Notes: generated by a model from the sequence alone, not told the origin. Counted from the stretch's first letter, positions 733 to 46,724 are shown. The stretch is 46,724 bases of DNA from a virus (IMGVR_UViG_2579778634_000020), one strand, 5' to 3'. Numbers and translations: made by a program.

Positions 733-3222
733 TCAATGTTCGCTTCCTGTTAACTGCCGGACAAGTGCAACCAGTTCGCTTACCTGATTTTCCAGAGTGC
801 TGATCCGGGTGTCTGCTGTTGCCAGATTTTCACGTAGCGTTGTGTTTTCCTCTTCCAGCGCGGTAACGCGATCATCTGTTTCACGGGCGACCTGAACAAG
901 TAAACCCGTCACGGCGGCGTAGTCAACATTAAGATAGCGCGTTTCTTCGCGTAGCTCGTTGCCGTCAACGGTCGGACCTTGTAACGCTTCACCGTAATGA
1001 GTAAACGATCCCACAGCTTCCGGTAGCGCCTCCATTACCTCCTGAGCGATAACGCCAGCGTAAGGTAGTCCGTTTTCCTTAAGGGTATAAGTGTACCCGT
1101 TCATTTTGCGGATGGCTTCAGTTGCATCACCTATAACCTGAATGTTGTCCTTCAGATCACGATCAGATGATTGGTTTATCGTTTCGCATGTAATGTGACC
1201 AGACGCTTTAAGATTTTTTACATCAAGTCTGTCGTTTGCAAAATTATATGAAATTGCGGTGCTGGTGCTTCCGGCATCATCATAATCGCTTTTATGAATA
1301 AACCAGTTTCCACCATTAGCAATGAGAGTATAAGTAGGCGTGTTAGCCGGGCGATCTGTTTCATTAAATCTTATTGCTGGGTTAGCGCTCCTTATTTGTA
1401 AAGGTTTTTCAACCGTGGATTTCAGTATCGCACTATCTACAATTAAATTACCTTCTGAGTTAATGTTTAGATATTTTGAAGCACCAGTTGAACCATCGTA
1501 TGTAAACCTTATTGTTAATTGACCTGGCTCATTTGATAAAGTCTCAACATACATATCAGCACCAAGACGCACAGTGCTGTCAGTTGCTAACAGTCTTGTA
1601 TGGAGAATACCACTAGATGTGTATGTATTGGTCGAATCACTATATCTATCAAGAAATAGACTGTTAAGTTGAGGGCTATTGCTCCTGCCTAATCCAAGAT
1701 TCGTTCTGGCACCATCAATAGTTGCCGCACCAGTACCTCCGGCCGCGATCGAAAGCGGAATCCATTCGCTATTCTCTGCATCGTAATAACCCCATGTTCC
1801 TGAATCGTAGATACTAAAAAATTTGCTTGCATTTTGACAATATACGCGTGTATTACCTGTTAGTTGAGTAAGCCTGTCCACTTCATCTTTTCTTGCGTGA
1901 CGCGTCCACTGCGGGCCTATTGTCGGATTCCAGCGATAAGTATAAAGCGAGCGCGTAGCCCATCCCTGAAATACACCTGTATACGCTGGTGTTCCATCTA
2001 CCTGACTAATAAACCCCGTAAGACTGCTTTCACCGGATGCAATCGATGGAAAGCCTTTTGCATTACTCATAATGCGCATAAATCCGATATACCCTGATGG
2101 GTTGCCGGAAATATCAGGACAATCACGCGGGGCTGAGCCAAGACCGATATTATCGCCAACAATTACTTGCGCCTGGTTGCGATAATTAAGTGCGTCCGCT
2201 GCAGATTTCGCCGCGTTTGTTTCACTGGATTTAGCATTAGTTTCGCTGGCTTTAGCGTTTGTTTCGCTGCTCTTTGCTGCTGCCTCGCTATTTTTCGCGT
2301 TGGTTTCTGATTTTTTGGCTGCTGTCGCGGAGTTTGCCGATGCAGTTTGTGAGGCCGCTGCCGCCTGTGCGCTGTTATCCGCATTCGTCTCAGACGTTTT
2401 TGCGGCCTTCGCGGAATTTCCTGCCGCCGTTGCCGAGGAAGCTGCACTACTGGCACTTGATGATGCGTTCGTTTCTGATGATTTCGCTGCCTCTTTTGAG
2501 GCCGCCGCATCCCGGGCTGAGGTGGCAGCTTCTGACGCTTTCGTGGTCGCGGTGGATGCAGAAGTGGCTGCAGATTTTTGTGACGCTGCAGCATTCGTTT
2601 CTGACGTTTTCGCCGCACCGGCACTGGTAGCCGCCGCGCTTTTTGAGGACTCTGCAGCGGCAGCACTTTTTGATGCTTCAGTAGCCTTTGTTGATGCCGT
2701 TCCTGCGCTGGAAGACGCTGACTGAGCCGACGTCGCGGCCTGCCCGGCTGATGTGCTGGCTGCACGTGCTGAGCCTGCAGCATCAGTCGCATGGGTTGCC
2801 GCCTCACGGGCTGATGTGCCGGCATCGCTGGCTGACTTCTTCGCGGCTGCCGTGTTCTGTTCCACTGCGGACGCGTTACGCGCCACCTCTTCCACCATCA
2901 GTTCAAAGCGGCGCAGTGCCTCCGGACGGGCATCATCCTCCGTCATGGCACCGAGAAAATCATTCAGTGTGCCCGGCTTTGAGTCCTCATATACGGTGAT
3001 AATCCCGGCGTGTGACGGCGGGAATCCCTCCACCAACAGACTGACGCTGTACTGACCATACTCGACGTCCATTGTGTAACGCCCGGCTTCATCCGGGTTT
3101 TCTGAGGCCACTGTGTTCACCACCACCGTGGTGCTGTTGCGCCTGGCCTTTAGCTGAATGGTGCAGTTTTGTATCGGCTTACCTGCGCCATCTTTCAGTA
3201 CACCTGAAATCCGTACTGCCAT
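733..3222 (-). CDS. stf: Side tail fibre protein: lambda Stf-like N-terminus, Ala/Ser/Thr-rich repeat shaft, C-terminal intramolecular-chaperone-like domain
   Basis: 829-aa ORF. N-terminus MAVRISGVLKDGAGKPIQNCTIQLKA...VYEDSKPGTLNDFLGAMTEDDARPEALRRFELMVEEVARNA is lambda Stf/StfR-like from memory. The C-terminal ~130 aa (NGYTYTLKENGLPYAGVIAQEV...LENQVSELVALVRQLTGSEH) resembles the self-cleaving chaperone domains (peptidase S74 type) of endosialidase and T5-type fibres. RBS GGGGGG upstream. Confidence 0.9.
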   Translation of the reverse strand: MAVRISGVLKDGAGKPIQNCTIQLKARRNSTTVVVNTVASENPDEAGRYTMDVEYGQYSVSLLVEGFPPSHAGIITVYEDSKPGTLNDFLGAMTEDDARPEALRRFELMVEEVARNASAVEQNTAAAKKSASDAGTSAREAATHATDAAGSARAASTSAGQAATSAQSASSSAGTASTKATEASKSAAAAESSKSAAATSAGAAKTSETNAAASQKSAATSASTATTKASEAATSARDAAASKEAAKSSETNASSSASSAASSATAAGNSAKAAKTSETNADNSAQAAAASQTASANSATAAKKSETNAKNSEAAAKSSETNAKASETNAKSSETNAAKSAADALNYRNQAQVIVGDNIGLGSAPRDCPDISGNPSGYIGFMRIMSNAKGFPSIASGESSLTGFISQVDGTPAYTGVFQGWATRSLYTYRWNPTIGPQWTRHARKDEVDRLTQLTGNTRVYCQNASKFFSIYDSGTWGYYDAENSEWIPLSIAAGGTGAATIDGARTNLGLGRSNSPQLNSLFLDRYSDSTNTYTSSGILHTRLLATDSTVRLGADMYVETLSNEPGQLTIRFTYDGSTGASKYLNINSEGNLIVDSAILKSTVEKPLQIRSANPAIRFNETDRPANTPTYTLIANGGNWFIHKSDYDDAGSTSTAISYNFANDRLDVKNLKASGHITCETINQSSDRDLKDNIQVIGDATEAIRKMNGYTYTLKENGLPYAGVIAQEVMEALPEAVGSFTHYGEALQGPTVDGNELREETRYLNVDYAAVTGLLVQVARETDDRVTALEEENTTLRENLATADTRISTLENQVSELVALVRQLTGSEH
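2200..2850. repeat. Low-complexity coding repeat region inside stf (K/A-SETNA and ASxxAxT units)
   Basis: The protein here is an almost pure A/S/T/K/E repeat (…KTSETNAAAS…KSSETNASSS…KTSETNADNS…KKSETNAKNS…KSSETNAKASETNAKSSETNAAKS…). The DNA is repetitive and GC-rich, which explains several spurious overlapping ORFs on both strands. Confidence 0.7.
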
Positions 3223-3231
3223 ATTCCCCCC

Positions 3232-3259
3232 ACAAAAAAGCCCGCCTGAACCGGCGGGC
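3232..3259 (-). terminator. Rho-independent terminator downstream of lom, abutting the stf ribosome binding site
   Basis: On the minus strand GCCCGCC (3259-3253), loop, GGCGGGC (3246-3240), then TTTTTTGTGGGGGG, immediately followed by the stf start at 3222. Confidence 0.6.
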
Positions 3260-3286
3260 TGTCATAACACTGTGTTACCTGGCTAA

Positions 3287-3886
3287 TCAGAATTTATAAC
3301 CGACACCAACGATGAAACTGTTGGTACGCCAGTCACCGCTGCCGGAGCCTTCATAAGCGACGTCAACGGCCACGGATTCGGTCGGGTTAAACTGCACGCC
3401 AGCTCCCCACGCCAGAGACGTGTTGCTGTGGCGACCGTCATCACTTCCGGTCAGCACATCGTGCGTTTTCCCCTTGTTGTCAGTTACGCGGATATAATCC
3501 CCGGAGAAAGTCGACACACGGCTGTAAGCCATACCCGCCATCGCATACGCGCTGAACCATTCATTCACGCGCACAGACGGCCCCGCCATCACGCTGAACC
3601 AGCGATTACGCACGGAATCCTCATGCCAGCGGGTATCGCTGTAATGCGTTTTTTGCTCATCTTCAGCGTTGGCATAACTGAATGACGTAATCAGCCCCAG
3701 CGTGTCCGTAAACTCATAACGGTATTTCACGTTAATCCCGTTCAGATTATCGCTGCCGGGAGCGTTCGTACGGGCATGAAGATACCCTGCGCTCAGTGTG
3801 GCCTGCTGCTCAGACGCCCATGCAGGCGCACCGGATACGGCCAGACAGATGGCTGCGGACAAAATGGCTGCACAAACTTTACGCAT
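3287..3886 (-). CDS. lom: Lom-like outer membrane beta-barrel protein (Ail/Lom/PagC family), prophage cargo
   Basis: 199 aa with an N-terminal signal peptide (MRKVCAAILSAAICLAVSGAPAWA). Lambda Lom signature motifs recalled: GINVKYRYE, VMAGP, AYAMAG, and the C-terminal VDVAYEGSGSGDWRTNSFIVGVGYKF. RBS GAGAGG. Flanked by terminators on both sides. Confidence 0.9.
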   Translation of the reverse strand: MRKVCAAILSAAICLAVSGAPAWASEQQATLSAGYLHARTNAPGSDNLNGINVKYRYEFTDTLGLITSFSYANAEDEQKTHYSDTRWHEDSVRNRWFSVMAGPSVRVNEWFSAYAMAGMAYSRVSTFSGDYIRVTDNKGKTHDVLTGSDDGRHSNTSLAWGAGVQFNPTESVAVDVAYEGSGSGDWRTNSFIVGVGYKF

Positions 3887-3908
3887 AATTACCTCTCGCT
3901 TTTCTGCA

Positions 3909-3934
3909 ATAAAAAAGGCGCCATTTCTGGCGCC
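3909..3934 (-). terminator. Rho-independent terminator downstream of J
   Basis: GGCGCCA-TTTC-TGGCGCC perfect hairpin (3917-3934) followed on the minus strand by TTTTTT (complement of 3911-3916). Confidence 0.6.
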
Positions 3935-3953
3935 CGTATATGGGTTATAAAAT

Positions 3954-6900
3954 TCAGCTGATACTGATGCCTGCGGTGGCTTTCTTCATCACCACAACCA
4001 GCAAATCGCTGATACTTGCTGTGGGATACCAGTCATTTACCAGCCATGCTGACACCGAAAACTCCAGCGTCGTGTGACCGTGACCGGCAGGCATATCAAT
4101 AACGCCACTGTAAATCAGCGTATTATCCAGCGCGGTACGGTTATAAATTTCAGCACCGTTTTTCCGCACTATCAGACGGCATGAGGAGTAAATATCAGTA
4201 TGCTCTCTCTCATGTTTAGCGCCGCTGAATGCCACCGCCGGAATAACAATCTGCCGGTCAAACGGCTGATCGTCATAAATCCTGACGGTAATGGTCCCTG
4301 ATGGCCACCGCTCCGGTGCCCGGGAGTCCCGCGGGAAAGCCTTACCCACTGTTTTGACAATATCGCCTTCAATCTGGTTGGCTGACAGTTTCCCTTTAAT
4401 CTGACAGTTCTCATTTATCGTAACGTTGTTGAGCGTCCCGGCGTTCGCATTCACACTGCCACTGATATCCGCATTTTTAGCGGTCAGCTTTCCGTCCGGT
4501 GTCAGGGAAAAGGCCGGAGGATTGCCGCCGCTGGTAATGGTGGGGGCCGTCAGGCGCTTCAGGAACACTTCATTCATGAATATCTGATCACCCTGACCAA
4601 CAAACATCGGTTTTGTGTTGCCATTCGCAGGATTAATCATCGCAATCCTGTCTGCCGCCAGCAGCACCTGACTCTGCATGCCGTCAGGGGTGTTCTCAAT
4701 ACCGGCACCAATACCCGCGATATAAAGGCGTCCGTCCTGCATCTGCTGCAGCTTCACAGCCCACATGCTGTTCAGGTTATTATTTGTATCAACCTGAACC
4801 TTCTGTATCTGCTGAATTGCAGCACTCTGGTCTTCCAGTTTCTTATTGACGGTCTGCGTGATTTCATTGCTGACATCCGTAATGGACGTCCTGATTTCAG
4901 CCAGGTCAGGCGCAAGCTGACCGTTATCAATCTGCGTCCACAGCTCCTGAGCCAGATGGGTTTTCCCTATCTCGCCTTTGAAAAAATCCAGATAACCGGA
5001 TGCATCATCACTCGGCTGACCAACAGCCTCCACGAATGCCGATTTGCCAACGGTGTTCACACTGCGGATATAAAAGTAATAATCATGGCCCGGTTTGATA
5101 TTGATACTGGCGGCTATCCAGTACAGCGCCGTACCAAGATAGCGTGCTGTGGTTTCAACCTGCCTGATATCCGCAATCCGCTTTTCCGAGAACCAGAACT
5201 CAAACTGTACCGTCGGATCATAAACCGCAAGATGCGGCGTGGCGGTTATCTGAAAATAGCCCGGTGTCAGCTCAATCCGAGACGGCGCTGCCGGTGCGGC
5301 AATCCGGAACGATACCGATGCCGGATCGCCCTGCTGTCCCCACGCATTTACCGCCCGGACTGTCAGCCTGTAGTTCCCCAGCGCCAGTTGCGTGAAGCGG
5401 TATGTAGTTTCCGTCGTCCGGGCCGTGCTGACCAGCCGCTCACTGCCGTCATCCGCTGCCACGGTCAGGCGAAGCATAAAGCTCACCCCCTTCACCACCT
5501 TCGGCGTGTCCCAGCGCGCCAGCACCTGATATTCCCCGCTGTCTGCGGTGACTTCGGCAGTCAGGTGCTGCACCGCTGGCGGCGTGACACCATTCACCGT
5601 GCCGCTCTGGTCGCCGTCAAAGTGCGCCCCGTTATCCACGATGGCCTCTTTTTCCGGCACATGCTGCACGGCGGTGATGGCATACGTGCCGTCGTCGTTC
5701 TCACGGATACTCACGCAGCGAAACAGTCGCTGGCGCAGCGTCGGCAGCTTCAGCCCCCATACGCTGTATTCAGCAACACCGTCAGGAACACGGCTCACTT
5801 TTACCTTCACGCCGTCGGTGGCGGACTGGACCTCCACGCTGACCGGATTGCCATTTCCGTCAACCAGGCTTATCAGCGTGGTACCGGAGGATGGCAGCGT
5901 GATTTCACGGTCGAGCGTCAGCGTCCGGGTCTGGCTGTTCACCGCCAGCACGCGCCCACCGGTGCTGATACCCGCATAGTCATCATCACAGATTTCAATG
6001 ACATCGCCCGGCACATGGCGAAGCCCTTCTGCGCCCACGCTGAAGTCCACGGTCTGCGTTTCCAGCAGTTCTGTTTTAATCAGCCACAGCCCGGCGCGGT
6101 GTGCCTGCCCCCGGCTGGTACAGCCAAAGGCATCCATCTTCGTGACATTACGACCATAACGGGCAATGGCCTGCGTATCTTCAACAAGCTCTGTCGCCGT
6201 CTCCCAGCCGTTGTCCGGGTCAATCCAGTTCACCTCAACGGCATTATGGCGGACCTTCAGGGCGCTGAAACTGTAGCGGAACGGCGCGCCATCATCCGGC
6301 ATCACCACATTACTGCGGTTATAGGTCCACACCTTATCCGACGGCCGGTCCTGCACGAACGTCAGCGTCTGCCCGTTCCATACCGGCATACAGCGCATCG
6401 CCGAGCAGAAATCACTGAGCACATCCCACGCCTTACGCTGTGTGGTCAGCCAGGCATTACAGGTGATGCGCGGCTCCGTGCCGCCAAAGCCGTCCGGCAC
6501 CGACTGGTCGCAGTACTGGCCGATGACATACAGCGCCCATTTATCCACATCCGCCGCACCAAGACGTTTCCCCATGCCGTAGCGCGGGTGGGTCAGCATA
6601 TCCCACAGACACCATGCCATGTTGTTGCTGTATGCTGGCTTAAACGTTCCGTCCCAGATACCGCTGTATTGCCGCGTCTGCGGGTTATAGTTCGACGGCA
6701 CCTGCAGAATGCGCCCGCGAAGATGATAATTACGGCTCACCTGCTGGCTGCCGAACTGCTCCGAGTCCACCTGTACGCCGACCAGTGCCGTGTTCGGGTA
6801 GCACTGTTTCACATCGATGATTTCGGTGTATGACGACCAGAGCGTTTTGTTCTGCAGCTGGTCTGTGGTGCTGTCCGGCGTCATCCTGCGCATCCGGATG

Positions 6901-7433
6901 TTGAACGGGCGCGGCGGCAGGTTACCCACCACCACCGAGGCCAGATACTGCGAGGTGGTTTTGCCCTTAATGGTGATGTCTTTTTCCGTCACCCAGCCAC
7001 CGTTACGTTGTATCTGAACCAGCAGGCGGACTTCCGACGGATTCCGGTCCCCCTTTGAGGTGGTTTCCACCAGTGCCTGCACACCGAAGGTAAAGCGCAG
7101 TCGGTCGATGTTTGCCGACGTGATGGCGCGGGTGATCGGCGTGTCGTATTTCACTTCCGTACCCAGCACCGTCTCGGAGCCGGAGGATTCAAATCCCTCC
7201 GGCGGAGTCTGCTCCTGCTCACCAGCCCGGAACACCACCGTGACACCGGCGATGTTGGTATTCCCCTCACTGTCCAGCACCGGCGTACTGTTCAGCAGCA
7301 CGCTTTTTAATCCATCCACCGGACCTTCAATCGGCCCTTCACTGATGGCATCAATCACACTCAGCAACTGCGTGGATTTCAGGTTGTCCTTCGCTTCACG
7401 CGGGGTATGCCCCTTACTGCTGCCTTTACCCAT
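3954..7433 (-). CDS. J: Tail tip / central fibre host-specificity protein J
   Basis: 1159 aa, collinear with and similar to lambda J over the N-terminal and central parts (…[45 protein letters not shown]…). Sits downstream of I-K-L-M in the lambda order. Confidence 0.95.
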
Positions 7434-7493
7434 TCGTCACGCTCCATAAACGACAAAACCGCCCGCAGGCGGTTTCACATAAAACGTTTTTCA

Positions 7494-8135
7494 TCAGCGA
7501 CCAATCACCACAACCTGACCACCATCACCTTCATCTGCTGTGCTGATCTCCTGAGATACCACCCGCGACCCCACACGCATTTCACCGTACAGAACGGGCA
7601 GGACATTGCCCTGGGCAACCATATTATCCAGTGAAGAAAAATAGGTGTTCTGTTTGCCGTTATCCGTTGTCTGTGTGCGGGGGGTTTTGGGTTTAGGGGC
7701 CAGCATCTGTGCAACACCGCCAAGCGTCATACTGGCACCGAGAGAAAACAGCAGATTACTCGCCATAATTCCTACCCCCGGCATCCATATAGCAACCGCC
7801 ATAACAGCCGCCCCCAGCACAGCCTGAAACACACCGCCACTTTTGGCTCCTGCCAGACGCGGCACGATATGGATCACAGCACCATTTGCCAGCGGTTCAT
7901 TAAGACGGGCTGATAATTCCGTTTCACCTGTATCACGCCCGGCAATGCGTATCTGATACCAGCCGTCGCTCAGCTTCTGACGAAACGCCGGGATCTGCAT
8001 GGCCAGCGCCCGGATGGCTTCAGCCCCCGTTTTTACACGAAGGTCGATGCGGCGGCCAAATCGTTGTAAATCCCCGTAAAGGCAGATGCGCGCCATGCCC
8101 GGTGACGCCAGAGGGAGTGTGTGCGTCGCTGCCAT
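7494..8135 (-). CDS. I: Tail assembly protein I
   Basis: 213 aa. Position and 103-nt overlap with the upstream K ORF, plus a 60-nt gap before J, match the lambda K-I-J arrangement. Confidence 0.85.
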   Translation of the reverse strand: MAATHTLPLASPGMARICLYGDLQRFGRRIDLRVKTGAEAIRALAMQIPAFRQKLSDGWYQIRIAGRDTGETELSARLNEPLANGAVIHIVPRLAGAKSGGVFQAVLGAAVMAVAIWMPGVGIMASNLLFSLGASMTLGGVAQMLAPKPKTPRTQTTDNGKQNTYFSSLDNMVAQGNVLPVLYGEMRVGSRVVSQEISTADEGDGGQVVVIGR

Positions 8136-8776
8136 TTGTCGGTATACCTCTCTCGTTTGCTCAGTTGTTCAGGAATATGGTGCAGCAGCTCGCCATCACC
8201 ACAGTAAATGGCGGCATGATTCGGCACCGATGAACCAAAACAGCACAGCAGTACATCGCCCGGCTGCGCCGCTGACAACGGCACCTGATACAGCCCCGTT
8301 GCCTCCAGATTATCCAGATAGAGATTCTGGCCGTTACGCCACCAGCCATCCTCACGATGAAAATCCGGCATCTCAATCCCCGCCAGATGATAAGCATCCC
8401 GGAACAGCGTGTAACAGTCCGTCACCCCGTGCTCAAAGCGCCGCCCGGTGAGATGCGGCACACAGCGGAACTTATGAATCGCCCCCCGGCAGACCAGCCA
8501 CCACGGCAAATCACTCTGCACCTGCAGCCGCCGGTCAGCCTCACTCAGCCAGGGCAGACCACCGGGGTGGCTGTGGACCAGCGCCACAATCTCACCCTGC
8601 ATTTCTGCCCGCAGCCAGTCCTCCGGAGCCATCCGGAAATAATCCTCCGGCTCACCGGAAATATTCACGCAGGGATAATATCTTTCTCCCTCCGGCGTTC
8701 TCACCACGAAGCCGCACGACTCCGCTGGCGCACATCGCCGGGCGTGCGCCAGAATCGCTGATTCTGTCTCTGTCAT
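8033..8776 (-). CDS. K: Tail assembly protein K (MPN/JAB plus NlpC/P60-like)
   Basis: 247-aa ORF (MTETESAILAHARRCAPAESCGFVV…HSHPGG…CYTLFRDAYH…). HSHPGG is a JAMM-like motif and the Cys/His pair fits an NlpC/P60-like fold. Between L and I as in lambda. Confidence 0.85.
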   Translation of the reverse strand: MTETESAILAHARRCAPAESCGFVVRTPEGERYYPCVNISGEPEDYFRMAPEDWLRAEMQGEIVALVHSHPGGLPWLSEADRRLQVQSDLPWWLVCRGAIHKFRCVPHLTGRRFEHGVTDCYTLFRDAYHLAGIEMPDFHREDGWWRNGQNLYLDNLEATGLYQVPLSAAQPGDVLLCCFGSSVPNHAAIYCGDGELLHHIPEQLSKRERYTDKWQRRTHSLWRHRAWRASAFTGIYNDLAAASTFV

Positions 8777-8781
8777 GGGAT

Positions 8782-9480
8782 TTACTGCGAAAATTTGTTA
8801 ATGGAAAGGAAGCCGCCAAAGTTGCCGACGTTATTGCGGAACTTACATCCGCTCAGGCATTTGCTGCATTTATCCTTCGTGATATCGGACGTCGGCTGGT
8901 CATATTCATCCGCGACCGCCGGACCGTGATAACCGCACTCATCGCCGCGATAGGTCCAGGTGCAGGTGTTGGCCAGCATGATACGTCCCGGAAAAACGGC
9001 ACCATCCGTTTCAGTCGGAGTAGACAGCACAAAGGCCGCGCTAACCGCGTTCAGTTCGCTGCACTGCTCGATGCGCCAGCGGCTGATCACCTCCTGCTCC
9101 GGATCGGCTTCGCTGTTTCCGTTGATGAAGTTCACCGCATCCAGAAAACGGGCGTAGACCTTACGCCGGACCACTGTTCCGCCGACCAGACTCTGTAAAT
9201 CCTCCACCATCCCGGTGACCATGCCGTGCAGGTTAGATACTTTCAGTGTTGGCCTTGCACTGGCACCTTTGCCGTTCATCTCAAATCCACTCCCCTGAAT
9301 GGGATAGGCCTGATACTGCCGACTCTGCCAGGTGACAGACTCACCTTTTTCATTCTGCTCATTGCAGAAAAAGTAGCGATCCCCGCCTACCTCTGTCAGG
9401 TCGATTTCCCAGAGCACCACGCTGGCCGACTGCTCCGCCCGAATGCATTCATTCAGTGTTTCCTGTTGTATGTCCTGCAT
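8782..9480 (-). CDS. L: Minor tail protein L
   Basis: 232 aa, the same length as lambda L. Start overlaps the M stop as ATGA at 9480. Confidence 0.85.
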   Translation of the reverse strand: MQDIQQETLNECIRAEQSASVVLWEIDLTEVGGDRYFFCNEQNEKGESVTWQSRQYQAYPIQGSGFEMNGKGASARPTLKVSNLHGMVTGMVEDLQSLVGGTVVRRKVYARFLDAVNFINGNSEADPEQEVISRWRIEQCSELNAVSAAFVLSTPTETDGAVFPGRIMLANTCTWTYRGDECGYHGPAVADEYDQPTSDITKDKCSKCLSGCKFRNNVGNFGGFLSINKFSQ

Positions 9481-38231: not shown

Positions 38232-38482
38232 GAATCAACTCCCATCAGCTTTTTCGTAGTAGTTTTATTTCTGCCAATAGTTAAAATTGCATCGGCAGAA
38301 AATAATCCGTTTGATGCATGAGCGATTTTTTCAGCGTAATTTGTTTCGCCGGTATATTCTGTGCGAGGCAATTTTCCGTTATCCATCCATTTGTAGATTG
38401 CTCTTTGGCTGACACCACAAACGTCGGCCACAACAGAAACGCGAACAGTTTTGATTACATCTTCAAGTGTTTTCTGGTTCAT
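38228..38482 (-). CDS. ydaS: Cro-like HTH regulator (YdaS-like)
   Basis: ATG at 38482 preceded by RBS GAGGG: MNQKTLEDVIKTVRVSVVADVCGVSQRAIYKWMDNGKLP…, a Cro/XRE-type HTH. Divergent from the racR-like repressor gene. Confidence 0.75.
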   Translation of the reverse strand: MNQKTLEDVIKTVRVSVVADVCGVSQRAIYKWMDNGKLPRTEYTGETNYAEKIAHASNGLFSADAILTIGRNKTTTKKLMGVDS

Positions 38483-38497
38483 ATCACCCTCACAATG

Positions 38498-38571
38498 TGA
38501 ACTTTGAGTACATGCTATAACAGAACTGACAGTACATTCAAGAGCGAATATCATTGAACTTATGGTTCATG
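38498..38571. promoter_or_regulatory. Immunity switch region (OR-like) with direct repeats containing AGTACAT
   Basis: 17-bp direct repeats TGAACTTTGAGTACATG (38498-38514) and TGAACTTATGGTTCATG (38555-38571, overlapping the racR ATG), plus AGTACAT at 38531-38537, 24 bp from the first copy. The racR ATG has no Shine-Dalgarno. Confidence 0.45.
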
Positions 38572-38981
38572 AAGATAAAGCGCGTAAAGAGTTCGCCAGT
38601 AGGCTTGCGCTAGCCTGTGAAAACGCTGGTTATGAACAACATGGAAGGCAGGCAGAAATTGCCCGTCGAATGAAATTAACACCAAAAGCGGTTAGCAAAT
38701 GGTTTAATGGTGAAACAATTCCTCGCCGAGAGAAATTAAGGGAATTAGCAACACTCATTGGAACAACACCAACCTATCTTTTGGGAGAGGATACAGAAGA
38801 AAGTGGACAGATACGTTTCTATCAGGAGTTAAATCCAAGACAAAAAATCATCATTGACCTTCTGGACGAGCTCCCTGACAGTGAGACAGATGAACTTTTA
38901 AAAACTCTTGAGGAGAAAAAACAGAAGTACAATGCAATTTACGAAGAGTTAGCACGAAAGAAAAAACAAAAAGCCTCTTAA
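38562..38981 (+). CDS. racR: Prophage repressor, RacR-like (XRE-family HTH)
   Basis: 139 aa; HTH in …QAEIARRMKLTPKAVSKWFNGETIPRREKLRELATLIG…; charged C-terminus. Divergent from the Cro-like gene, with the early-left operon downstream on the same strand. Confidence 0.8.
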   Translation: MVHEDKARKEFASRLALACENAGYEQHGRQAEIARRMKLTPKAVSKWFNGETIPRREKLRELATLIGTTPTYLLGEDTEESGQIRFYQELNPRQKIIIDLLDELPDSETDELLKTLEEKKQKYNAIYEELARKKKQKAS

Positions 38982-39100: not shown

Positions 39101-39268
39101 ATACCTACCAACCCACCCCGCCCCACAGAACGCCGGGCAATACTTCGAGTTACCAGGCAGTGGTCAGGGGTTAAGTAGCCAGCCCGAGGCGTATGAACAT
39201 GACGGCGGGATTCAAATTTTGCAGTGCAGCAGTTAGTTCCGCCACCCGGCGTTAAGGGGATAGATAAG

Positions 39269-39403
39269 ATGGTGCATTACGAAGTAGTTCAGTATTTGAT
39301 GGATTGTTGCGGTATCACTTACAACCAGGCTGTGCAGGCTTTACGCAGCAACGACTGGGATCTCTGGCAGGCAGAAGTCGCTATACGTAGCAACAAGATG
39401 TGA
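39269..39403 (+). CDS. ydaG: Small protein YdaG-like (44 aa)
   Basis: ATG at 39269 with RBS AAGGGGA: MVHYEVVQYLMDCCGITYNQAVQALRSNDWDLWQAEVAIRSNKM. Not in the track (<60 aa). Size and position match ydaG of K-12 Rac. Confidence 0.6.
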   Translation: MVHYEVVQYLMDCCGITYNQAVQALRSNDWDLWQAEVAIRSNKM

Positions 39404-39413
39404 GATTCGCAAA

Positions 39414-39569
39414 ATGCAAAAAATCGACCTCGGCAACAACGAATCCCTGGTGTGCGGCGTGTTCCCCAACCAGGATGGAACGTTCACTGCCATGACGTAT
39501 ACCAAAAGCAAAACATTTAAAACCGAAACTGGTGCGCGCCGATGGTTGGAGAAGCACACAGTAAGCTAA
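39414..39569 (+). CDS. ydaF: Small protein YdaF-like (51 aa)
   Basis: ATG at 39414: MQKIDLGNNESLVCGVFPNQDGTFTAMTYTKSKTFKTETGARRWLEKHTVS. Its 3' end overlaps the 3' end of the convergent sieB-like gene. Confidence 0.6.
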   Translation: MQKIDLGNNESLVCGVFPNQDGTFTAMTYTKSKTFKTETGARRWLEKHTVS

Positions 39570-40054
39570 CGATTAAAACGTCTACTCCTGCTGTTCCAGA
39601 ATAACTTCATAAAATGGGAGTATTTTTCGGTGACGAGATAATAAGAACAGTTTGCGCTATCACTCTGATGTTGAATGATGCCCTTCCGTTCTAATTTTTT
39701 CATAACCGGGTTACGGCAAGGAGAAGTGATAATAAGATTTCCTGTTTTAAGGAAATCTTTAAATACAGCGATTTCTTTCTCAGATAAACGAAGCAATACT
39801 CGTTGCTCTGGTAGTAATGAATAATGCTTTTGAATATGTGCTCGCAATCTTGAGAAGGAAATGGCGACCACGAAAGAAAAGGCAAAAACGATAATCTGAA
39901 AGAGCCAAGGTATTTCAGTATAAGCATTGAATGCGACAGTAAACTCTTTCGGTATCAGCCAGAGAGTGAGACCAAAAATGATAATCGTATACATAAGTCT
40001 TTCGAGTGGCTCGTTAGCAAAAAGTTTCAACAATGGAGTAAATACATCCAACAT
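39566..40054 (-). CDS. sieB: Superinfection exclusion protein B-like membrane protein
   Basis: About 162 aa from the ATG at 40054 (MLDVFTPLLKLFANEPLERLMYTIIIFGLTLWLIPKEF…), with two hydrophobic segments. Opposite orientation to the early-left genes, between racR and kilR. Confidence 0.7.
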   Translation of the reverse strand: MLDVFTPLLKLFANEPLERLMYTIIIFGLTLWLIPKEFTVAFNAYTEIPWLFQIIVFAFSFVVAISFSRLRAHIQKHYSLLPEQRVLLRLSEKEIAVFKDFLKTGNLIITSPCRNPVMKKLERKGIIQHQSDSANCSYYLVTEKYSHFMKLFWNSRSRRFNR

Positions 40055-40495
40055 ATCAATAACTCTCAACTGTAAGGGTATTGAAATGTTAACACAAGCT
40101 CTCGCTGTAGGGGTATAGCCGAGACCACCGAAGCCCGGAGGTGGTGAAATAAAACCGGGCACAACACGAAGGCGCATTTCCGATATCCATAAAGAGTCGG
40201 TCTTGTCTGTTAAATTTAAATGGTGGGAGTGCGCCTCCGGTTGTAAATAACGACATTGCTGTGTGTAGTCCTGGCGGCATCAGTTTTTTTCTTGAAGTTC
40301 GGCTGATGTCCGCCCTTTTTAAAGTGAATTTTGTGATGCGGTGAATGCGGCTAAGCGCACGTGGCACAGTTAAAAGTCATGTTAGTCCTTATTGGTTTGG
40401 GTGGGAAAGCCGACTGTAATTGTTAACTGGTTGCAGTCACCTGGAGGCACCAGGCACCGCATCAACAAAGTTCATTTGTAAAAATGGAGATAATT

Positions 40496-40717
40496 ATGAT
40501 TGCACATCACTTCGGAACTGATGAAATACCACGTCAGTGTGTGACTCCTGGCGATTATGTTCTTCATGAAGGCCGGACATATATTGCCTCGGCAAACAAT
40601 ATTAAAAAGCGAAAACTATATATTCGTAACCTGACCACAAAAACATGCATTACTGACCGCATGATTAAAGTCTTCCTCGGTCGTGATGGTTTACCTGTAA
40701 AGGCGGAGTCATGGTGA
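40496..40717 (+). CDS. kilR: KilR, FtsZ-targeting cell division inhibitor
   Basis: ATG at 40496 with RBS GGAG: [73 protein letters not shown], matching Rac KilR (73 aa) as I recall it. Confidence 0.85.
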
Positions 40718-40887
40718 TGACTAAGAAAATAAAATGTGCTTACCACCTTTGCAAAAAAGACGTTGAAGAAAGCAAAGCTATTGAAAGAATGCTTCACTTC
40801 ATGCACGGGATTTTATCAAAAGACGAACCGAGAAAATATTGCAGTGAAGCTTGTGCCGAAAAAGACCAGATGGCACATGAACTTTAA
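40717..40887 (+). CDS. ydaE: YdaE-like small Cys-rich protein
   Basis: ATG overlaps the kilR stop (TGATG): [56 protein letters not shown] (56 aa), with a possible Cys/His metal site. Not in the track. Confidence 0.65.
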   Translation: MTKKIKCAYHLCKKDVEESKAIERMLHFMHGILSKDEPRKYCSEACAEKDQMAHEL

Positions 40888-40961
40888 TTAATTGACTATT
40901 CGAAACTGAATTTATGCCAGAAATGGCAGGTATTCGCTCAACCTTAATTAAGGAGAAAAAC

Positions 40962-41237
40962 ATGATTACCAATTATGAAGCCACTGTTGTAACTACCGAT
41001 GACATTGTTCACGAGGTGAATCTGGAAGGAAAGCGCATTGGCTACGTAATTAAAACAGAAAATAAAGAAACCCCATTCACTGTGGTTGATATCGATGGTC
41101 CATCAGGCAACGTAAAAACACTTGATGAAGGTGTCAAAAAAATGTGCCTGGTGCATATCGGAAAGAATCTGCCCACAGAAAAAAAAGCCGAATTTCTGGC
41201 AACTCTAATTGCAATGAAATTAAAAGGTGAAATCTGA
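40962..41237 (+). CDS. racC: RacC
   Basis: ATG at 40962 with RBS AGGAG: MITNYEATVVTTDDIVHEVNLEGKRIGYVIKTENKETPFTVVDIDGPSGNVKTLDEGVKKMCLVHIGKNLPTEKKAEFLATLIAMKLKGEI (91 aa), matching Rac RacC from memory. Confidence 0.8.
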   Translation: MITNYEATVVTTDDIVHEVNLEGKRIGYVIKTENKETPFTVVDIDGPSGNVKTLDEGVKKMCLVHIGKNLPTEKKAEFLATLIAMKLKGEI

Positions 41238-41242
41238 AAGAA

Positions 41243-41267
41243 ATAGCCTGCGTATGGCGCAGGCTAT
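41243..41267. other. Perfect 10-bp stem-loop between racC and recE
   Basis: ATAGCCTGCG (41243-41252), 5-nt loop, CGCAGGCTAT (41258-41267), starting 6 nt after the racC stop. No downstream U-tract. Confidence 0.4.
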
Positions 41268-41338
41268 GAACAGTGTGTATCCGGCAAGATCATTCACTGA
41301 ACAAAACGAATTTTAATCTGAGTTGAGGTTAAAAAACA

Positions 41339-43939
41339 ATGAGCACAAAACCACTCTTCCTGTTACGGAAAGCGAAAAAATCATCCGGTGAACCTGACGT
41401 CGTCCTGTGGGCAAGCAACGATTTTGAATCGACCTGTGCCACTCTGGACTACCTGATCGTTAAGTCAGGTAAAAAACTGAGCAGCTATTTTAAAGCTGTT
41501 GCCACGAATTTTCCTGTCGTTAATGACCTGCCCGCTGAAGGTGAGATCGATTTTACCTGGAGTGAACGCTATCAACTCAGCAAAGACTCCATGACATGGG
41601 AACTAAAACCGGGAGCAGCACCAGACAACGCTCACTATCAAGGCAATACCAACGTCAACGGCGAAGACATGACTGAGATTGAGGAGAATATGCTACTCCC
41701 AATTTCTGGCCAGGAACTGCCCATTCGTTGGCTTGCTCAACACGGCAGCGAAAAACCGGTAACGCACGTTTCACGCGACGGACTCCAGGCATTACACATT
41801 GCTCGGGCTGAAGAACTACCGGCTGTTACTGCCCTGGCTGTTTCCCACAAAACCAGCCTGCTCGACCCGCTGGAAATTCGCGAACTCCACAAACTGGTTC
41901 GTGACACTGACAAAGTTTTCCCTAATCCTGGTAATTCAAACCTGGGACTGATAACTGCTTTTTTCGAAGCATACCTGAACGCTGACTACACCGATCGAGG
42001 ACTGCTGACAAAAGAGTGGATGAAGGGTAATCGTGTTTCACACATCACTCGCACGGCTTCCGGTGCTAATGCTGGCGGCGGAAACCTCACCGATCGCGGC
42101 GAAGGTTTCGTACACGATCTGACGTCACTGGCGCGCGACGTAGCCACTGGCGTACTGGCCCGTTCAATGGATCTGGACATCTATAACCTTCATCCGGCAC
42201 ACGCTAAACGCATTGAGGAAATTATCGCTGAAAATAAACCGCCCTTTTCTGTTTTCCGCGACAAATTCATCACCATGCCTGGCGGGCTGGATTATTCCCG
42301 CGCCATCGTGGTTGCGTCCGTAAAAGAAGCACCAATTGGGATCGAGGTCATCCCCGCGCACGTCACTGAATATCTGAACAAAGTACTGACTGAAACCGAT
42401 CATGCCAACCCTGATCCGGAAATCGTGGATATTGCCTGCGGTCGCTCCTCTGCCCCGATGCCGCAGCGAGTAACAGAAGAAGGAAAACAGGATGATGAAG
42501 AAAAACCGCAACCATCTGGAACAACGGCAGTTGAACAGGGAGAGGCTGAAACAATGGAACCGGACGCAACTGAACATCATCAGGACACGCAGCCGCTGGA
42601 TGCTCAGTCACAGGTAAATTCTGTTGATGCGAAATATCAGGAACTGCGGGCAGAACTCCATGAAGCCCGGAAAAACATTCCATCAAAAAATCCTGTCGAT
42701 GCCGATAAATTGCTTGCTGCATCACGTGGTGAATTTGTTGACGGAATTAGCGACCCGAACGATCCGAAATGGGTAAAGGGGATCCAGACTCGCGATTGTG
42801 TGTACCAGAACCAGCCAGAAACGGAAAAAACCAGCCCGGATATGAATCAACCTGAGCCAGTAGTGCAACAGGAACCGGAAATAGCCTGCAATGCCTGCGG
42901 CCAGACTGGCGGGGATAACTGCCCTGACTGTGGTGCGGTGATGGGCGACGCAACATACCAGGAAACATTCGATGAAGAGAGTCAGGTTGAAGCTAAGGAA
43001 AATGATCCGGAGGAAATGGAAGGCGCTGAACATCCGCACAATGAGAATGCTGGCAGCGATCCGCATCGCGATTGCAGTGATGAAACTGGCGAAGTCGCAG
43101 ATCCCGTAATCGTAGAAGACATAGAGCCAGGTATTTATTACGGAATTTCGAATGAGAATTACCACGCGGGTCCCGGTGTCAGTAAGTCTCAGCTCGATGA
43201 CATTGCTGATACTCCGGCACTGTATTTGTGGCGTAAAAATGCCCCCGTGGACACCACAAAGACAAAAACGCTCGATTTAGGAACCGCTTTCCACTGCCGG
43301 GTACTTGAGCCGGAAGAATTCAGTAACCGCTTTATCGTAGCACCTGAATTTAACCGCCGGACAAACTCCGGAAAAGAAGAAGAGAAAGCGTTTCTGAGGG
43401 AATGCGCAAGCACAGGAAAAACGGTTATCACTGCCGAAGAAGGCCGGAAAATTGAACTCATGTATCAGAGCGTTATGGCTTTGCCGCTGGGGCAATGGCT
43501 TGTTAAAAGCGCCGGACACGCTGAATCATCAATTTACTGGGAAGATCCTGAAACAGCAATTTTGTGTCGGTGCCGTCCGGACAAAATTATCCCTGAATTT
43601 CACTGGATCATGGACGTGAAAACTACGGCGGATATTCAACGATTCAAAACCGCTTATTACGACTACCGCTATCACGTTCAGGATGCATTCTACAGTGACG
43701 GTTATGAAGCACAGTTTGGAGTGCAGCCAACTTTCGTTTTTCTGGTTGCCAGCACAACTATTGAATGCGGACGTTATCCGGTTGAAATTTTCATGATGGG
43801 CGAAGAAGCAAAACTGGCAGGTCAGCTGGAATATCACCGCAATCTGCGAACCCTGGCTGACTGCCTCAATACCGATGAATGGCCAGCTATTAAGACGTTA
43901 TCAGTGCCCCGCTGGGCTAAGGAATATGCAAATGACTAA
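41339..43939 (+). CDS. recE: Exodeoxyribonuclease VIII (RecE)
   Basis: 866 aa; long acidic/disordered middle region and a C-terminal nuclease domain; stop overlaps the recT start. Matches the size of Rac RecE. Confidence 0.95.
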
Positions 43940-44741
43940 GCAACCACCAATCGCAAAAGCCGATCTGCAAAAAACTCAGGGAAACCGTGCACCAGCAGCA
44001 ATTAAAAATAACGACGTGATTAGTTTTATTAACCAGCCATCAATGAAAGAGCAACTGGCAGCAGCTCTTCCACGCCATATGACGGCTGAACGTATGATCC
44101 GTATCGCCACCACAGAAATTCGTAAAGTTCCGGCGTTAGGAAACTGTGACACTATGAGTTTTGTCAGTGCAATCGTACAGTGTTCACAGCTCGGACTTGA
44201 GCCCGGTAGCGCCCTCGGTCATGCATATTTACTGCCTTTTGGTAATAAAAACGAAAAGAGCGGTAAAAAAAACGTTCAGCTAATCATTGGCTATCGCGGC
44301 ATGATTGATCTGGCTCGCCGTTCAGGTCAAATCGCCAGCTTGTCAGCCCGTGTTGTCCGTGAAGGTGACGAGTTTAATTTCGAATTTGGCCTTGATGAAA
44401 AGTTAATACACCGCCCAGGAGAAAACGAAGATGCCCCTGTTACCCACGTCTATGCTGTCGCAAGACTGAAAGACGGAGGTACTCAGTTTGAAGTTATGAC
44501 GCGCAAACAGATTGAGCTGGTGCGCAGCCAGAGTAAAGCTGGTAATAACGGGCCGTGGGTAACTCACTGGGAAGAAATGGCAAAGAAAACGGCTATTCGT
44601 CGCCTGTTCAAATATCTGCCCGTATCAATTGAGATCCAGCGTGCAGTATCAATGGATGAAAAGGAACCACTGACAATCGATCCTGCAGATTCCTCTGTAT
44701 TAACCGGGGAATACAGTGTAATCGATAATTCAGAGGAATAA
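43932..44741 (+). CDS. recT: RecT single-strand annealing protein
   Basis: 269 aa from the ATG at 43932 ([65 protein letters not shown]…); start overlaps the recE stop. Confidence 0.95.
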
Positions 44742-44749
44742 TTCAGCCT

Positions 44750-44768
44750 GGCGGTGTAATGCACCGCC
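44750..44768 (+). terminator. Weak hairpin after recT (possible attenuator)
   Basis: GGCGGTG-TAATG-CACCGCC, then AACTTGAAATATTTTT; the T-run is displaced by about 10 nt. Confidence 0.3.
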
Positions 44769-44796
44769 AACTTGAAATATTTTTATGAGAAAAATT

Positions 44797-44991
44797 ATGA
44801 GATATGACAATGTTAAACCATGTCCATTTTGTGGTTGTCCATCAGTAACGGTGAAAGACATTTCAGGATATTACCGGGCAAAATGCAACGGATGCGAATC
44901 CCGAACTGGCTATGGTGGAAGTGAAAAAGAAGCGCTCGAAAGATGGAATAAACGAACCACTGAAAATATTAATGGAGGCGTTCATGTATAA
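44797..44991 (+). CDS. ralR: RalR (Lar) restriction-alleviation protein / type I TA toxin
   Basis: MRYDNVKPCPFCGCPSVTVKDISGYYRAKCNGCESRTGYGGSEKEALERWNKRTTENINGGVHV, near-identical to Rac RalR as I recall it. An alternative in-frame ATG lies at 44785 (MRKIM…). Confidence 0.85.
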   Translation: MRYDNVKPCPFCGCPSVTVKDISGYYRAKCNGCESRTGYGGSEKEALERWNKRTTENINGGVHV

Positions 44992-45172
44992 AATTACCGC
45001 TACAATTGAAAAGGAAGGTGGCACTCCTACTAACTGGACAAGATATTCAAAATCTAAACTAACGAAATCAGAATGCGAAAAAATGCTCTCAGGTAAAAAA
45101 GAAGCAGGCGTTTCCAGAGAGCAGAAAGTAAAACTGATAAATTTTAATTGCGAGAAACTTCAGTCCTCGTGA
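44984..45172 (+). CDS. ydaC: YdaC-like small protein
   Basis: ATG at 44984 preceded by GGAGG, overlapping the ralR stop: MYKITATIEKEGGTPTNWTRYSKSKLTKSECEKMLSGKKEAGVSREQKVKLINFNCEKLQSS. Symbol by synteny. Confidence 0.6.
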   Translation: MYKITATIEKEGGTPTNWTRYSKSKLTKSECEKMLSGKKEAGVSREQKVKLINFNCEKLQSS

Positions 45173-45204
45173 ATTGCATTGTATTCAAATTAAAACTTCA
45201 TAGC

Positions 45205-45218
45205 TGATTATTAATAAT
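45205..45218. other. Perfect 14-bp AT-rich palindrome GATTATTAATAATC upstream of xis
   Basis: Self-complementary over all 14 bp, in the AT-rich spacer between ydaC and xis. Confidence 0.4.
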
Positions 45219-45271
45219 CAACATCAGGCGTCAATTTCAGTCTAACATTGGCGCCTGCCAGAGGTGATGCG

Positions 45272-45487
45272 ATGGCACAAGTAATCTTTAATGAAGAGTG
45301 GATGGTTGAATACGGCCTGATGCTTCGCACTGGTCTGGGGGCCAGACAAATTGAAGCATACCGCCAGAACTGTTGGGTGGAGGGCTTCCACTTCAAACGA
45401 GTATCTCCTTTAGGTAAGCCAGACAGCAAACGAGGGATTATCTGGTACAACTATCCAAAGATAAATCAGTTTATCAAAGACTCATGA
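45272..45487 (+). CDS. xis: Excisionase / recombination directionality factor
   Basis: 71 aa from the ATG at 45272 with RBS GAGGTG: [71 protein letters not shown]. Immediately upstream of int, stop 1 nt before the int ATG. Confidence 0.8.
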
Positions 45488-45488
45488 T

Positions 45489-46724
45489 ATGTCTAAATTA
45501 CCAACAGGTGTCGAGATTAGAGGTAGAAACATTCGCATCTGGTTCATGTTTCGAGGAAAACGATGTCGGGAAACATTAAAAGGCTGGGAGATTACAAACA
45601 GTAATATTAAAAAAGCCGGAAATTTAAGAGCGCTGATAGTTCATGAAATAAACTCCGGTGAATTTGAGTATTTAAGACGTTTTCCCCAGTCCAGCACTGG
45701 GGCAAAAATGGTGACAACGAGAGTCATAAAAACGTTCGGGGAGCTTTGTGATATCTGGACAAAAATTAAAGAGACAGAGTTAACAACAAACACAATGAAG
45801 AAAACGAAATCACAATTAAAAACACTCAGAATAATAATTTGTGAAAGTACCCCGATATCATATATTCGTTATAGCGATATCTTAAACTACCGGAATGAAC
45901 TGCTGCATGGAGAAACGCTTTACCTGGATAATCCAAGATCCAACAAAAAAGGAAGAACCGTGCGCACAGTTGATAACTATATCGCCCTGCTCTGTTCGCT
46001 GTTACGTTTTGCGTATCAGTCGGGATTTATATCAACCAAACCATTTGAAGGAGTAAAAAAATTACAGCGAAACAGAATAAAGCCTGACCCGTTATCTAAA
46101 ACAGAATTCAATGCATTAATGGAAAGTGAAAAAGGACAGAGCCAAAACTTGTGGAAATTTGCCGTTTACTCCGGGCTTCGTCACGGGGAACTGGCAGCTC
46201 TGGCGTGGGAGGATGTGGATTTCGAGAAGGGAATTGTGAATGTCAGAAGAAACCTGACGATACTTGATATGTTCGGTCCCCCAAAAACAAATGCCGGGAT
46301 CCGGACGGTAACATTACTACAGCCAGCTCTTGAAGCACTGAAGGAGCAATACAAACTGACCGGGCATCATCGCAAAAGCGAAATCACTTTTTATCATCGG
46401 GAGTACGGCAGAACCGAAAAGCAAAAACTGCATTTTGTTTTCATGCCCAGGATGTGTAACGGAAAACAGAAACCTTATTACTCGGTAAGCAGTTTGGGTG
46501 CGAGATGGAATGCAGCAGTAAAACGTGCTGGTATTCGCCGCCGTAATCCGTACCATACGCGACATACTTTTGCCTGCTGGCTGTTGACGGCAGGAGCGAA
46601 CCCGGCATTTATAGCCAGCCAGATGGGGCATGAAACTGCGCAGATGGTGTATGAAATTTACGGTATGTGGATTGATGACATGAACGACGAACAGGTAGCC
46701 ATGTTGAATGCGCGGTTATCATAG
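45489..46724 (+). CDS. int: Tyrosine integrase (lambda Int family)
   Basis: 411 aa; C-terminal catalytic region …RRNPYHTRHTFACWLLTAGANPAFIASQMGHETAQMVYEIYGMW… gives the H-x-x-R … H … Y signature. The stop codon is the last 3 bases of the window. Confidence 0.95.
   Translation: MSKLPTGVEIRGRNIRIWFMFRGKRCRETLKGWEITNSNIKKAGNLRALIVHEINSGEFEYLRRFPQSSTGAKMVTTRVIKTFGELCDIWTKIKETELTTNTMKKTKSQLKTLRIIICESTPISYIRYSDILNYRNELLHGETLYLDNPRSNKKGRTVRTVDNYIALLCSLLRFAYQSGFISTKPFEGVKKLQRNRIKPDPLSKTEFNALMESEKGQSQNLWKFAVYSGLRHGELAALAWEDVDFEKGIVNVRRNLTILDMFGPPKTNAGIRTVTLLQPALEALKEQYKLTGHHRKSEITFYHREYGRTEKQKLHFVFMPRMCNGKQKPYYSVSSLGARWNAAVKRAGIRRRNPYHTRHTFACWLLTAGANPAFIASQMGHETAQMVYEIYGMWIDDMNDEQVAMLNARLS

Follow-up and report, generated by a model that had tools for sequence, protein, structure and literature searches.

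The 46,724-nucleotide viral sequence IMGVR_UViG_2579778634_000020, here called the window, is occupied over nearly its whole length by a single lambdoid prophage, as judged from the map of open reading frames (ORFs), the composition profile and BLAST comparison with complete E. coli genomes. From about nucleotide 230 to 46724 it is very probably a complete-looking temperate member of the Rac family, inserted by IntR/XisR at the 5' end of ttcA; insertion at this site, a ttcC remnant and an IntR-type integrase, by which the family is recognised, were all found. Its one unusual feature is a rare variable cargo, a pair of genes coding for an OLD-like nuclease and a C5 DNA methyltransferase. The prophage itself adds one more ordinary member to a known and common family, and its value is modest; the cargo, which links OLD-family nucleases to cytosine methylation, is of wider value and is the most interesting lead.

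The features are collected in Table 1. The gene order is lambda-like: int and xis are followed by the recET/kil early-left operon, then by a DicA-like repressor and cro and by the replication genes ydaT, ydaU and ydaV, after which come Ren-like and nin-like genes, a Q-like antiterminator and the lysis genes S, R, Rz and Rz1. Beyond these lie trkG and the ParB-like/glycosyltransferase pair, then a terminase of headful type, the genes of a P22-type head and of a lambda-type tail, and finally lom and a side fibre. The annotated relatives CP136025, CP065970 and vB_EcoS-666R9 share this layout. TrkG, RecE, RecT, RalR, KilR and RacC, which a preliminary description of the sequence had named, are present with 95–100% protein identity to the so-named homologs in CP136025, and the lysis cassette, Q-like gene, terminase, head and lambda-type tail genes that it listed were all recovered as full-length ORFs.

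Table 1. Features of the window, with the segments that correspond to K-12 Rac and the K-12 deletions (window coordinates).
Feature	Position	Strand	Remarks
Chromosomal flank (uspF upstream region)	1–229
ttcC	176–229		Displaced original 5' end of ttcA, pseudogene
att core	~200–225		Approximately AAGAAAGAACAATACAAYCTGAACAA; inside ttcC, uspF side
Prophage end arm	230–732		Three TTTGCCCC repeats at 331–368; tfa remnant
tfa (tail-fibre assembly) C-terminal remnant	572–695		84% to K-12 tfaR; PGAP partial tfa in CP065970
Side tail fibre, 829 aa	733–3222	-	Prophage tail-fibre N-terminal domain PF08400, 1.8e-70; S74 intramolecular chaperone PF13884, 1.6e-14
Lom/Ail outer-membrane protein, moron	3287–3886	-	96.5% identity to CP065970 Lom
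Lambda-type tail tip and tape measure	3954–13044	-	J 3954–7433; I, K, L, M; tape measure (H) 9811–13044
Tail assembly chaperones	13210–13443; ydaY 13521–13877	-	Weak Phage_TAC_18 match
Tail tube, tail terminator-like and head-tail connector genes	Within 13210–16745	-	Tail tube 14028–14990
Head/packaging module	16788–23776	-	P22-type coat, DUF6651 scaffold-like, Mu-F-like minor head, DUF4055 portal, TerL, TerS
TAGT/GREB1-like GT-A glycosyltransferase	23970–24899	-	PF20691, 6.5e-35; PHROG 842, 8.6e-104; DDD motif
ParB/Srx-like protein	24892–25683	-	PF02195
trkG potassium transporter, moron	25821–27296	-	100% protein identity to relative's TrkG; 99.8% DNA identity to K-12
Lysis cassette	27416–28707	-	Holin, GH24 endolysin, Rz, embedded Rz1; 100% identity to relatives
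Rz1	27475–27660	-	ORF embedded in Rz; counterpart of K-12 rzoR
Predicted membrane protein, 189 aa	29046–29615	-	Between Q and holin; PHROG 11870 (no assigned function)
Late-control and nin-like genes	29837–31265	-	Q-like DUF1133, DUF1364 (HNH-like), DUF1367 (NinB/Orf-like)
Hok/Gef-family toxin gene, hokD type	31731–31886	-	PF01848, 1.8e-21
Low-GC (34–39%) variable cargo	31910–34958	+	Opposite strand to neighbours; exactly two genes
OLD-family ABC-ATPase/TOPRIM nuclease, 609 aa	32032–33861	+	Pfam AAA_21, AAA_15
C5 DNA methyltransferase (Dcm)	33885–34925	+	PF00145, 5.3e-61; TIGR00675
Replication block	34959–38231	-	DUF977 Ren-like, DUF1627 (YdaW), YdaV (DnaC-like), YdaU (initiator), YdaT (cII position)
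cro-like helix-turn-helix protein, 84 aa	38231–38482	-
DicA-like helix-turn-helix repressor, 139 aa	38562–38981	+
Early-left region	39224–45487		ydaF, sieB (-), KilS, kilR, ydaE, racC, recE, recT, ralR/RalA, rcbA, xisR
DicF-like RNA (KilS)	40260–40315	+	39 bits, below Rfam gathering score; E = 2e-6
rcbA	44984–45172		Ends 7 codons early: 189 nt vs 210 nt in K-12 (expected end ~45193)
RalA small RNA	44990–45168		Overlaps rcbA, opposite strand
IntR tyrosine integrase, 411 aa	45489–46724	+	98.8% identity to K-12 IntR, full length, no stop
K-12 intR to ydaG	46724–39106		98.94%, 79 mismatches in 7.6 kb
K-12 racR and ydaS			No match (blastn)
K-12 ydaT	38237–37811		92.5%
K-12 ydaU C-terminus, ydaV, ydaW	37316–35718		94.4%
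K-12 rzpR/rzoR, trkG, ynaK	27860–25430		99.79%
K-12 ydaY, ynaA	13869–12110		99.89%
K-12 lomR, stfR N-terminus	3476–2381		92.3%
K-12 tfaR fragment	695–572		84%
K-12 deletion A	27861–35717		7,857 bp
K-12 deletion B	13870–25429		11,560 bp; inside ParB-like gene through terminase, head and tail-tube genes
K-12 deletion C	3683–12109		8,427 bp; inside tape-measure gene to inside lom

Insertion site and relation to K-12 Rac

Nucleotides 1–229 of the window are identical to the K-12 chromosome at 229/230 positions and identity falls to 88% from 230 onwards (blastn); because of this step the start of the prophage was placed near 230. The span of 733–46724 given in the preliminary description has to be corrected at its left boundary. 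A 43-nt imperfect repeat in ttcC matches the 5' end of ttcA in CP136025 (our extract L002), and the att core was therefore placed within ttcC. The intR stop is the last codon of the window, so the att on the ttcA side falls beyond 46724 and, judged from CP136025, should lie some 60–100 bp further on. Copies of TTTGCCCC cluster just inside both ends, three in the end arm and two beside the intR stop in CP136025 (L002, 26995–27013). Their total of 5 against 2.4 expected is not above chance and the clustering at the prophage ends alone is suggestive; from their placement they are probable IntR arm-type binding sites. No tRNA genes were found in the window, and no insertion sequence (IS) elements were seen in it.

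Nucleotides 1408000–1438000 of NC_000913 (L001), which contain K-12 Rac (1411899–1434958), were compared with the window by blastn. The K-12 remnants map in strictly colinear order, with 98.9–99.9% identity over long blocks that extend beyond the proteins named in the preliminary description. Three K-12 junctions join sequences that are distant from each other in the window, each with just 2 nt of microhomology (TA, AA, CA), and 27.8 kb have been lost in total. Deletion A took part of Rz, together with R, S, the gene for the 189-aa protein, Q, the nin-like genes and hok, and beyond these the nuclease-methylase pair, the DUF977 gene and the C-terminal part of the DUF1627 gene. The proposal of a full-length Rac relative is right in outline, and the lysis, Q, packaging, head and tail genes are absent from K-12 through decay.

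Since the remnants on both sides of all three scars are colinear with the window at 99.8–99.9%, the K-12 ancestor had the same late region; K-12 Rac descends from a phage with this late layout by three illegitimate deletions and the gain of an IS5. The scar-flanking remnants differ from the window copy by 7 mismatches in 4,191 bp (0.17%). From their coordinates at the deletion junctions, K-12 ydaW, ynaK, ynaA, rzpR and lomR can be read as truncations or fusions at the scars, ynaK corresponding to the N-terminal stump of the ParB-like gene. This gives a base-level account of the decay of K-12 Rac, in which a number of K-12 genes without an assigned function find their explanation as scars of the deletions.

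In a survey of 5,426 RefSeq complete E. coli genomes, 335 had the K-12 layout across all three scars, and junction B, taken by itself, was present in 348; about 28% matched one or both halves of the ynaK/ydaY junction probe. The sampled rows with K-12 scars were mostly K-12 laboratory derivatives or K-12-like genomes of 4.5–4.7 Mb. Scars apparently confined to K-12-type genomes, with flanks that have diverged so little, fit recent decay better than an ancient fossil. In genomes of BL21 and B strains the match to the ParB-like gene breaks off at probe position 78 (L001, 17531–17608), which suggests a breakpoint different from that of K-12 in the same gene, and decay at the ttcA locus therefore appears recurrent and lineage-specific.

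The window copy and K-12 Rac share the ttcA site, IntR/XisR and the early-left operon from rcbA to ydaF, with RalA and KilS, at 98.9%, and trkG, Rz/Rz1, ydaY and the tape-measure N-terminus at 99.8–99.9%. K-12 Rac differs, besides its three deletions, in the IS5 in lom, in having RacR/YdaS immunity in place of the DicA-like pair, and in ending with stfR-tfaR-pinR-ynaE and not with an S74 fibre. The repressor and cro of the window gave no blastn match to RacR/YdaS and 36% identity over 33 aa by BLASTP, confined to the helix-turn-helix; the window copy is predicted to be heteroimmune to K-12 Rac, as is usual among lambdoid relatives. The unrelated repressor and cro, replication genes that are 92–94% identical to K-12 and a different fibre end, in phages that are mosaics in any case, would also suit a different lambdoid phage at the ttcA site that merely picked up Rac-like early genes by recombination. 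Against such an origin, the colinear, nearly identical blocks that flank the scars comprise Rz and trkG, ydaY, and the N-termini of the ParB-like and tape-measure proteins; the junction map largely refutes it and we regard it as highly improbable. The window phage is not itself the ancestor of K-12 Rac but a mosaic cousin of it.

Relatives, gene integrity and viability

Full-size Rac-like prophages at ttcA have been described as O157:H7 Sp10, as CP-933R and in other strains (PMC4632033), and, as far as the citation of Jobling in PMC5917428 goes, Rac-like prophages occur in LT-II enterotoxigenic strains. KingRac (46,834 bp) displaced K-12 Rac in the mouse gut, is weakly inducible by mitomycin, and produces virions that lysogenise K-12 (Frazao et al. 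2019, PMC6731689); it may transduce flanking DNA (PMC12251178). With full-size, active Rac-like prophages already published (PMC4632033, PMC5917428, PMC6731689), the novelty first seen in an intact Rac relative falls away. In the genome survey at least 80% of window 1–24000, the late region, was covered in 676/5,426 genomes and at least 80% of window 24001–46724 in 158; given the published relatives and the 676 genomes, this kind of element is well known and common.

Like the window copy, KingRac is a Rac-like prophage of about 46.8 kb at ttcA, heteroimmune to K-12 Rac, with an rcbA of 189 nt. Its gene table, in contrast, has no trkG and shows other gene sizes at the ralR, recT and recE positions, so that the mosaic is different; its inducibility is experimental, whereas the window copy is known from sequence alone. 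Identity of the two was considered, as they agree in length and in the 189-nt rcbA, and rejected because the KingRac table is without trkG and without recT-sized and recE-sized genes. Sp10/CP-933R and Rac-SA53 are likewise full-size in ttcA, with a left arm reported to be common with K-12 Rac (PMC4632033, PMC5917428); Rac-SA53, an LT-II phage (KU052037), differs in carrying enterotoxin cargo and in matching just 14% of window 12000–36000, at 87%. With lambda the window shares gene order, the tail genes H, M, L, K, I and J, lom, Q-dependent late control and S-R-Rz/Rz1. Lambda, unlike the window, has cos packaging where the latter has a P22-type head and a T4-type TerL (Terminase_6, typical of headful packagers), and Red where the latter has RecET recombination; the repressor of the window is also without a detected S24 domain.

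For an integrity check, 58 reference coding sequences (CDS) from the PGAP annotations of CP136025 (L002) and CP065970 (L003), one phage record and K-12 intR were translated and placed in the window by tblastn. All but the non-essential rcbA (57/58) aligned end to end, with no frameshift gaps and no internal stops, and apart from that gene the full integration, regulation, replication, lysis, packaging, head and tail set is free of stops and frameshifts. Frameshifts invisible to the eye, which the preliminary description had named as a risk to its reading, were found in none of these 57 genes. We infer that the prophage may be viable and inducible.

Several points weigh against a complete and functional Rac phage. 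rcbA is truncated, and one att site only, the uspF-side core, lies inside the window. No S24 peptidase domain was detected in the repressor by domain searches, so SOS-triggered self-cleavage cannot be assumed. The relatives used as length references are prophages of unproven viability, and the GenBank 'phages' vB_EcoS-666R9 and relatives (98% identical; ON4706xx), tried as evidence of viability, were discarded as in-silico prophage extractions from clinical isolates. The side fibre aligns to residues 1–678 and 937–1091 of the 1091-aa fibre of CP065970 (L003), with an in-frame internal gap and the S74 domain kept, and thus lacks about 260 residues found in that relative; the tfa remnant downstream of this self-chaperoning fibre is a scar of past fibre-module exchange. 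The immunity, replication and fibre modules are just 0–94% identical to K-12, and KingRac, the proven active relative, differs in modules, having no trkG and no recT- or recE-sized genes.

The prophage could also be structurally complete but dead, having recently been inactivated by point mutations of a kind that escapes ORF-level comparison, be it in promoters or regulatory sites, in the pac site or in structural proteins. Independent decay is common at this locus, as in the triple deletion of K-12, the BL21 breakpoint in the ParB-like gene, an IS3 inside Q with an internal stop in intR in GDSC2BY4G and an IS4 in 14EC029; to this may be added the truncated rcbA of the window and the weak induction of KingRac. 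On the other side, the 57 remaining genes are full length with 87–100% identity to relatives, int and xis are intact, as are the genes for lysis, packaging, head and tail, and the immunity module (38228–38981) has a 95.8% identical counterpart in Tritos, a phage with a deposited genome. We consider a dead prophage unlikely. CP136025, the closest relative of the early half, has an IS3 in its Q-like gene (8837–10640) and an internal stop in intR (25751–26986) and appears to be decaying independently.

The nuclease-methylase pair and its cargo slot

In the preliminary description hok, the OLD-like nuclease, the methyltransferase and two proteins of unknown role (34959–36167) formed an island missing from K-12 as one cargo unit. 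This has to be redrawn. The single deletion that emptied the region in K-12 (deletion A) extended to the nin-like genes and Q, to S and R and into Rz, and the island is not wholly absent, 35718–36167 (the N-terminal 150 codons, DUF1627) being retained as ydaW. The two proteins of unknown role are backbone genes, DUF977/Ren-like and DUF1627/YdaW, and hok is of the hokD type that is common to most lambdoid prophages. What is variable is the nuclease and C5 methyltransferase pair alone (~31910–34958): its flanks are widespread, through hok up to about 31909 and from about 34979 in DUF977, and window 31266–35405 was covered to at least 80% in 32 of the 5,426 genomes (BLAST).

In other prophages the hok-DUF977 interval holds QueH, an alpha/beta hydrolase (O157:H7), or a RelA/SpoT-domain, ParA, DUF5677, DUF7167 or DUF551 protein, and it is a general lambdoid cargo slot. 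Morons are accessory genes, dispensable for phage growth, and the pair is a rare example lodged in this hot spot. Accessory genes occupy discrete slots, namely the attR-end arm, lom, trkG, the Q-holin interval and the hok-DUF977 interval. The attR-end arm slot is empty in the window; in FDAARGOS_1058 (CP065970; L003, 3586–7035) it holds a sitABCD iron/manganese transporter operon between ttcC and the tfa remnant. In vB_EcoS-666R9 the interval from the Ren-like to the nin-like genes is filled by other genes. Conservation of hok with other prophages stops at the edge of the cargo, about 25 nt upstream of its start codon; searches for a Sok-like RNA or another Rfam element at hok were negative, and hok may be without its own regulatory region.

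The nuclease possesses Walker A (GKNGTNKSS, residues 54–62), Walker B (LLDEPE, 308–313) and H-loop (H344) motifs, and TOPRIM residues E396, D397 and D451-G452-D453, all invariant in 25 homologs. The ABC ATPase and C-terminal TOPRIM motifs are those of the OLD family (P2 Old, TsOLD, GajA, HEC-04/IbfA). Its AlphaFold model (pLDDT 84.9) gave TsOLD (6P74) and GajA as best PDB matches in Foldseek (1e-12); global TM scores are low (0.31–0.36), and sequence identities to solved OLD structures are 13–14%. The best PADLOC match, covering part of the protein, is HEC-04 (1.7e-34), an IbfA-related ATPase-TOPRIM protein that defends as a single gene; among the models of PADLOC-DB 2.0 none is devoted to an OLD-methylase pairing. 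The methylase also matches M.HaeIII, M.HhaI and the Dnmt1 catalytic domain.

Here 23 bp separate nuclease and methylase genes, which overlap in some homologs. A PF00145 gene lies directly downstream in 7/7 looked-up homologs of the nuclease (37–67% identity), from Serratia, Yersinia, Microbulbifer, other E. coli prophages (there between Q and holin), Bradyrhizobium, Pseudomonas and Tolumonas. When the pairing was scanned in species-representative genomes, the methylase was directly downstream in 42 of 75 evaluable loci, spanning Proteobacteria, Actinomycetota, Bacteroidota, Acidobacteriota, Bacillota and others, and a C5 methylase lay within 3 kb in 70. In the remaining 28/75 it stands elsewhere at no more than 3 kb, upstream of the nuclease in nearly all those listed, and in the examined loci of this group an HpaII-type or SmaI-type restriction enzyme or a GHKL ATPase lies between the genes. 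The GHKL ATPase is of the HATPase_c_3 type and in locus L084 occurs with a Hypoth_Ymh domain. More distant homologs adjoin complete HpaII-like or SmaI-like restriction-modification (R-M) pairs. The methylase of the two-gene form is 53–72% identical across phyla; no target site could be deduced for the window methylase, to which those tied to HpaII-/SmaI-like enzymes in distant loci are just 23–34% identical. As a type II R-M system the two-gene form has the C5 methylase and lacks a known restriction-enzyme fold, its sole nuclease being the ATPase-TOPRIM protein.

The partner of an OLD protein is nothing in class 1, a UvrD-like helicase in class 2, a retron in class 3 and, in PARIS, a split AriB; here the conserved partner is a PF00145 methylase, and the genomic context fits none of classes 1–4. 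A 2023 review of OLD proteins lists solitary, helicase-linked and retron-linked classes and makes no mention of methylases (PMC10568477), and a limited literature search found no published description of the pairing. The pair is probably an anti-phage defence, most likely one coupled to methylation. The TOPRIM nuclease would either attack DNA that lacks the 5-methylcytosine mark of its partner, in a restriction-like manner, or guard the methylase or an R-M system and fire on its inhibition.

Two independent cargo genes, an abortive-infection OLD protein of the P2 Old or HEC-04/IbfA type and an orphan anti-restriction methylase, would also account for what is seen. ATPase-TOPRIM proteins of the HEC-04/IbfA type defend as single genes, class 1 OLD genes are described as solitary (PMC10568477), and orphan methylases are frequent in phages. 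Independence is hard to reconcile, though, with genes so close or even overlapping, with a downstream C5 methylase in every one of the seven homologs at 37–67% identity, with the recurrence of the arrangement across phyla (42/75 directly downstream, 70/75 within 3 kb), and with the conservation of the two-gene-type methylase itself; we think it rather doubtful. Tentatively, and conceding that the case may well fall the other way, we suggest that the pair may represent a class of OLD-family defence system that is coupled to methylation, spans phyla and has so far gone undescribed.

Other modules

The ParB-like and glycosyltransferase genes overlap and lie directly upstream of terS (cassette 23967–25683). 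The glycosyltransferase belongs to the same PHROG as the T-even beta-glucosyl-HMC-alpha-glucosyltransferase, and a search of PDB sequences gave no match to it. In two distant contigs (L014, L015) the pair recurs, with 63–65% identity, upstream of terminases of two other types. This cassette beside the terminase is worth following up, less so than the nuclease-methylase cargo.

The tail genes at 3954–13044 are full length, with 87–98% identity to PGAP-annotated relatives, and the head and packaging genes show 98–100% identity to relatives and no stops. TerL belongs to the T4-type family Terminase_6, from which headful packaging is taken to be implied. The Q-like DUF1133 protein also matches Phage_antitermQ, and the DUF977 protein is a member of the Ren-like PHROG 142. 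The 189-aa protein has no Pfam match, and about three hydrophobic segments are visible in its translation. The Q-holin interval in which its gene lies is the site of stx in Stx phages. In the early-left region the DicF-like RNA overlaps the position of K-12 KilS (40222–40319 by coordinate mapping) and sits upstream of kilR, an arrangement that parallels DicF-dicB of the Qin prophage.

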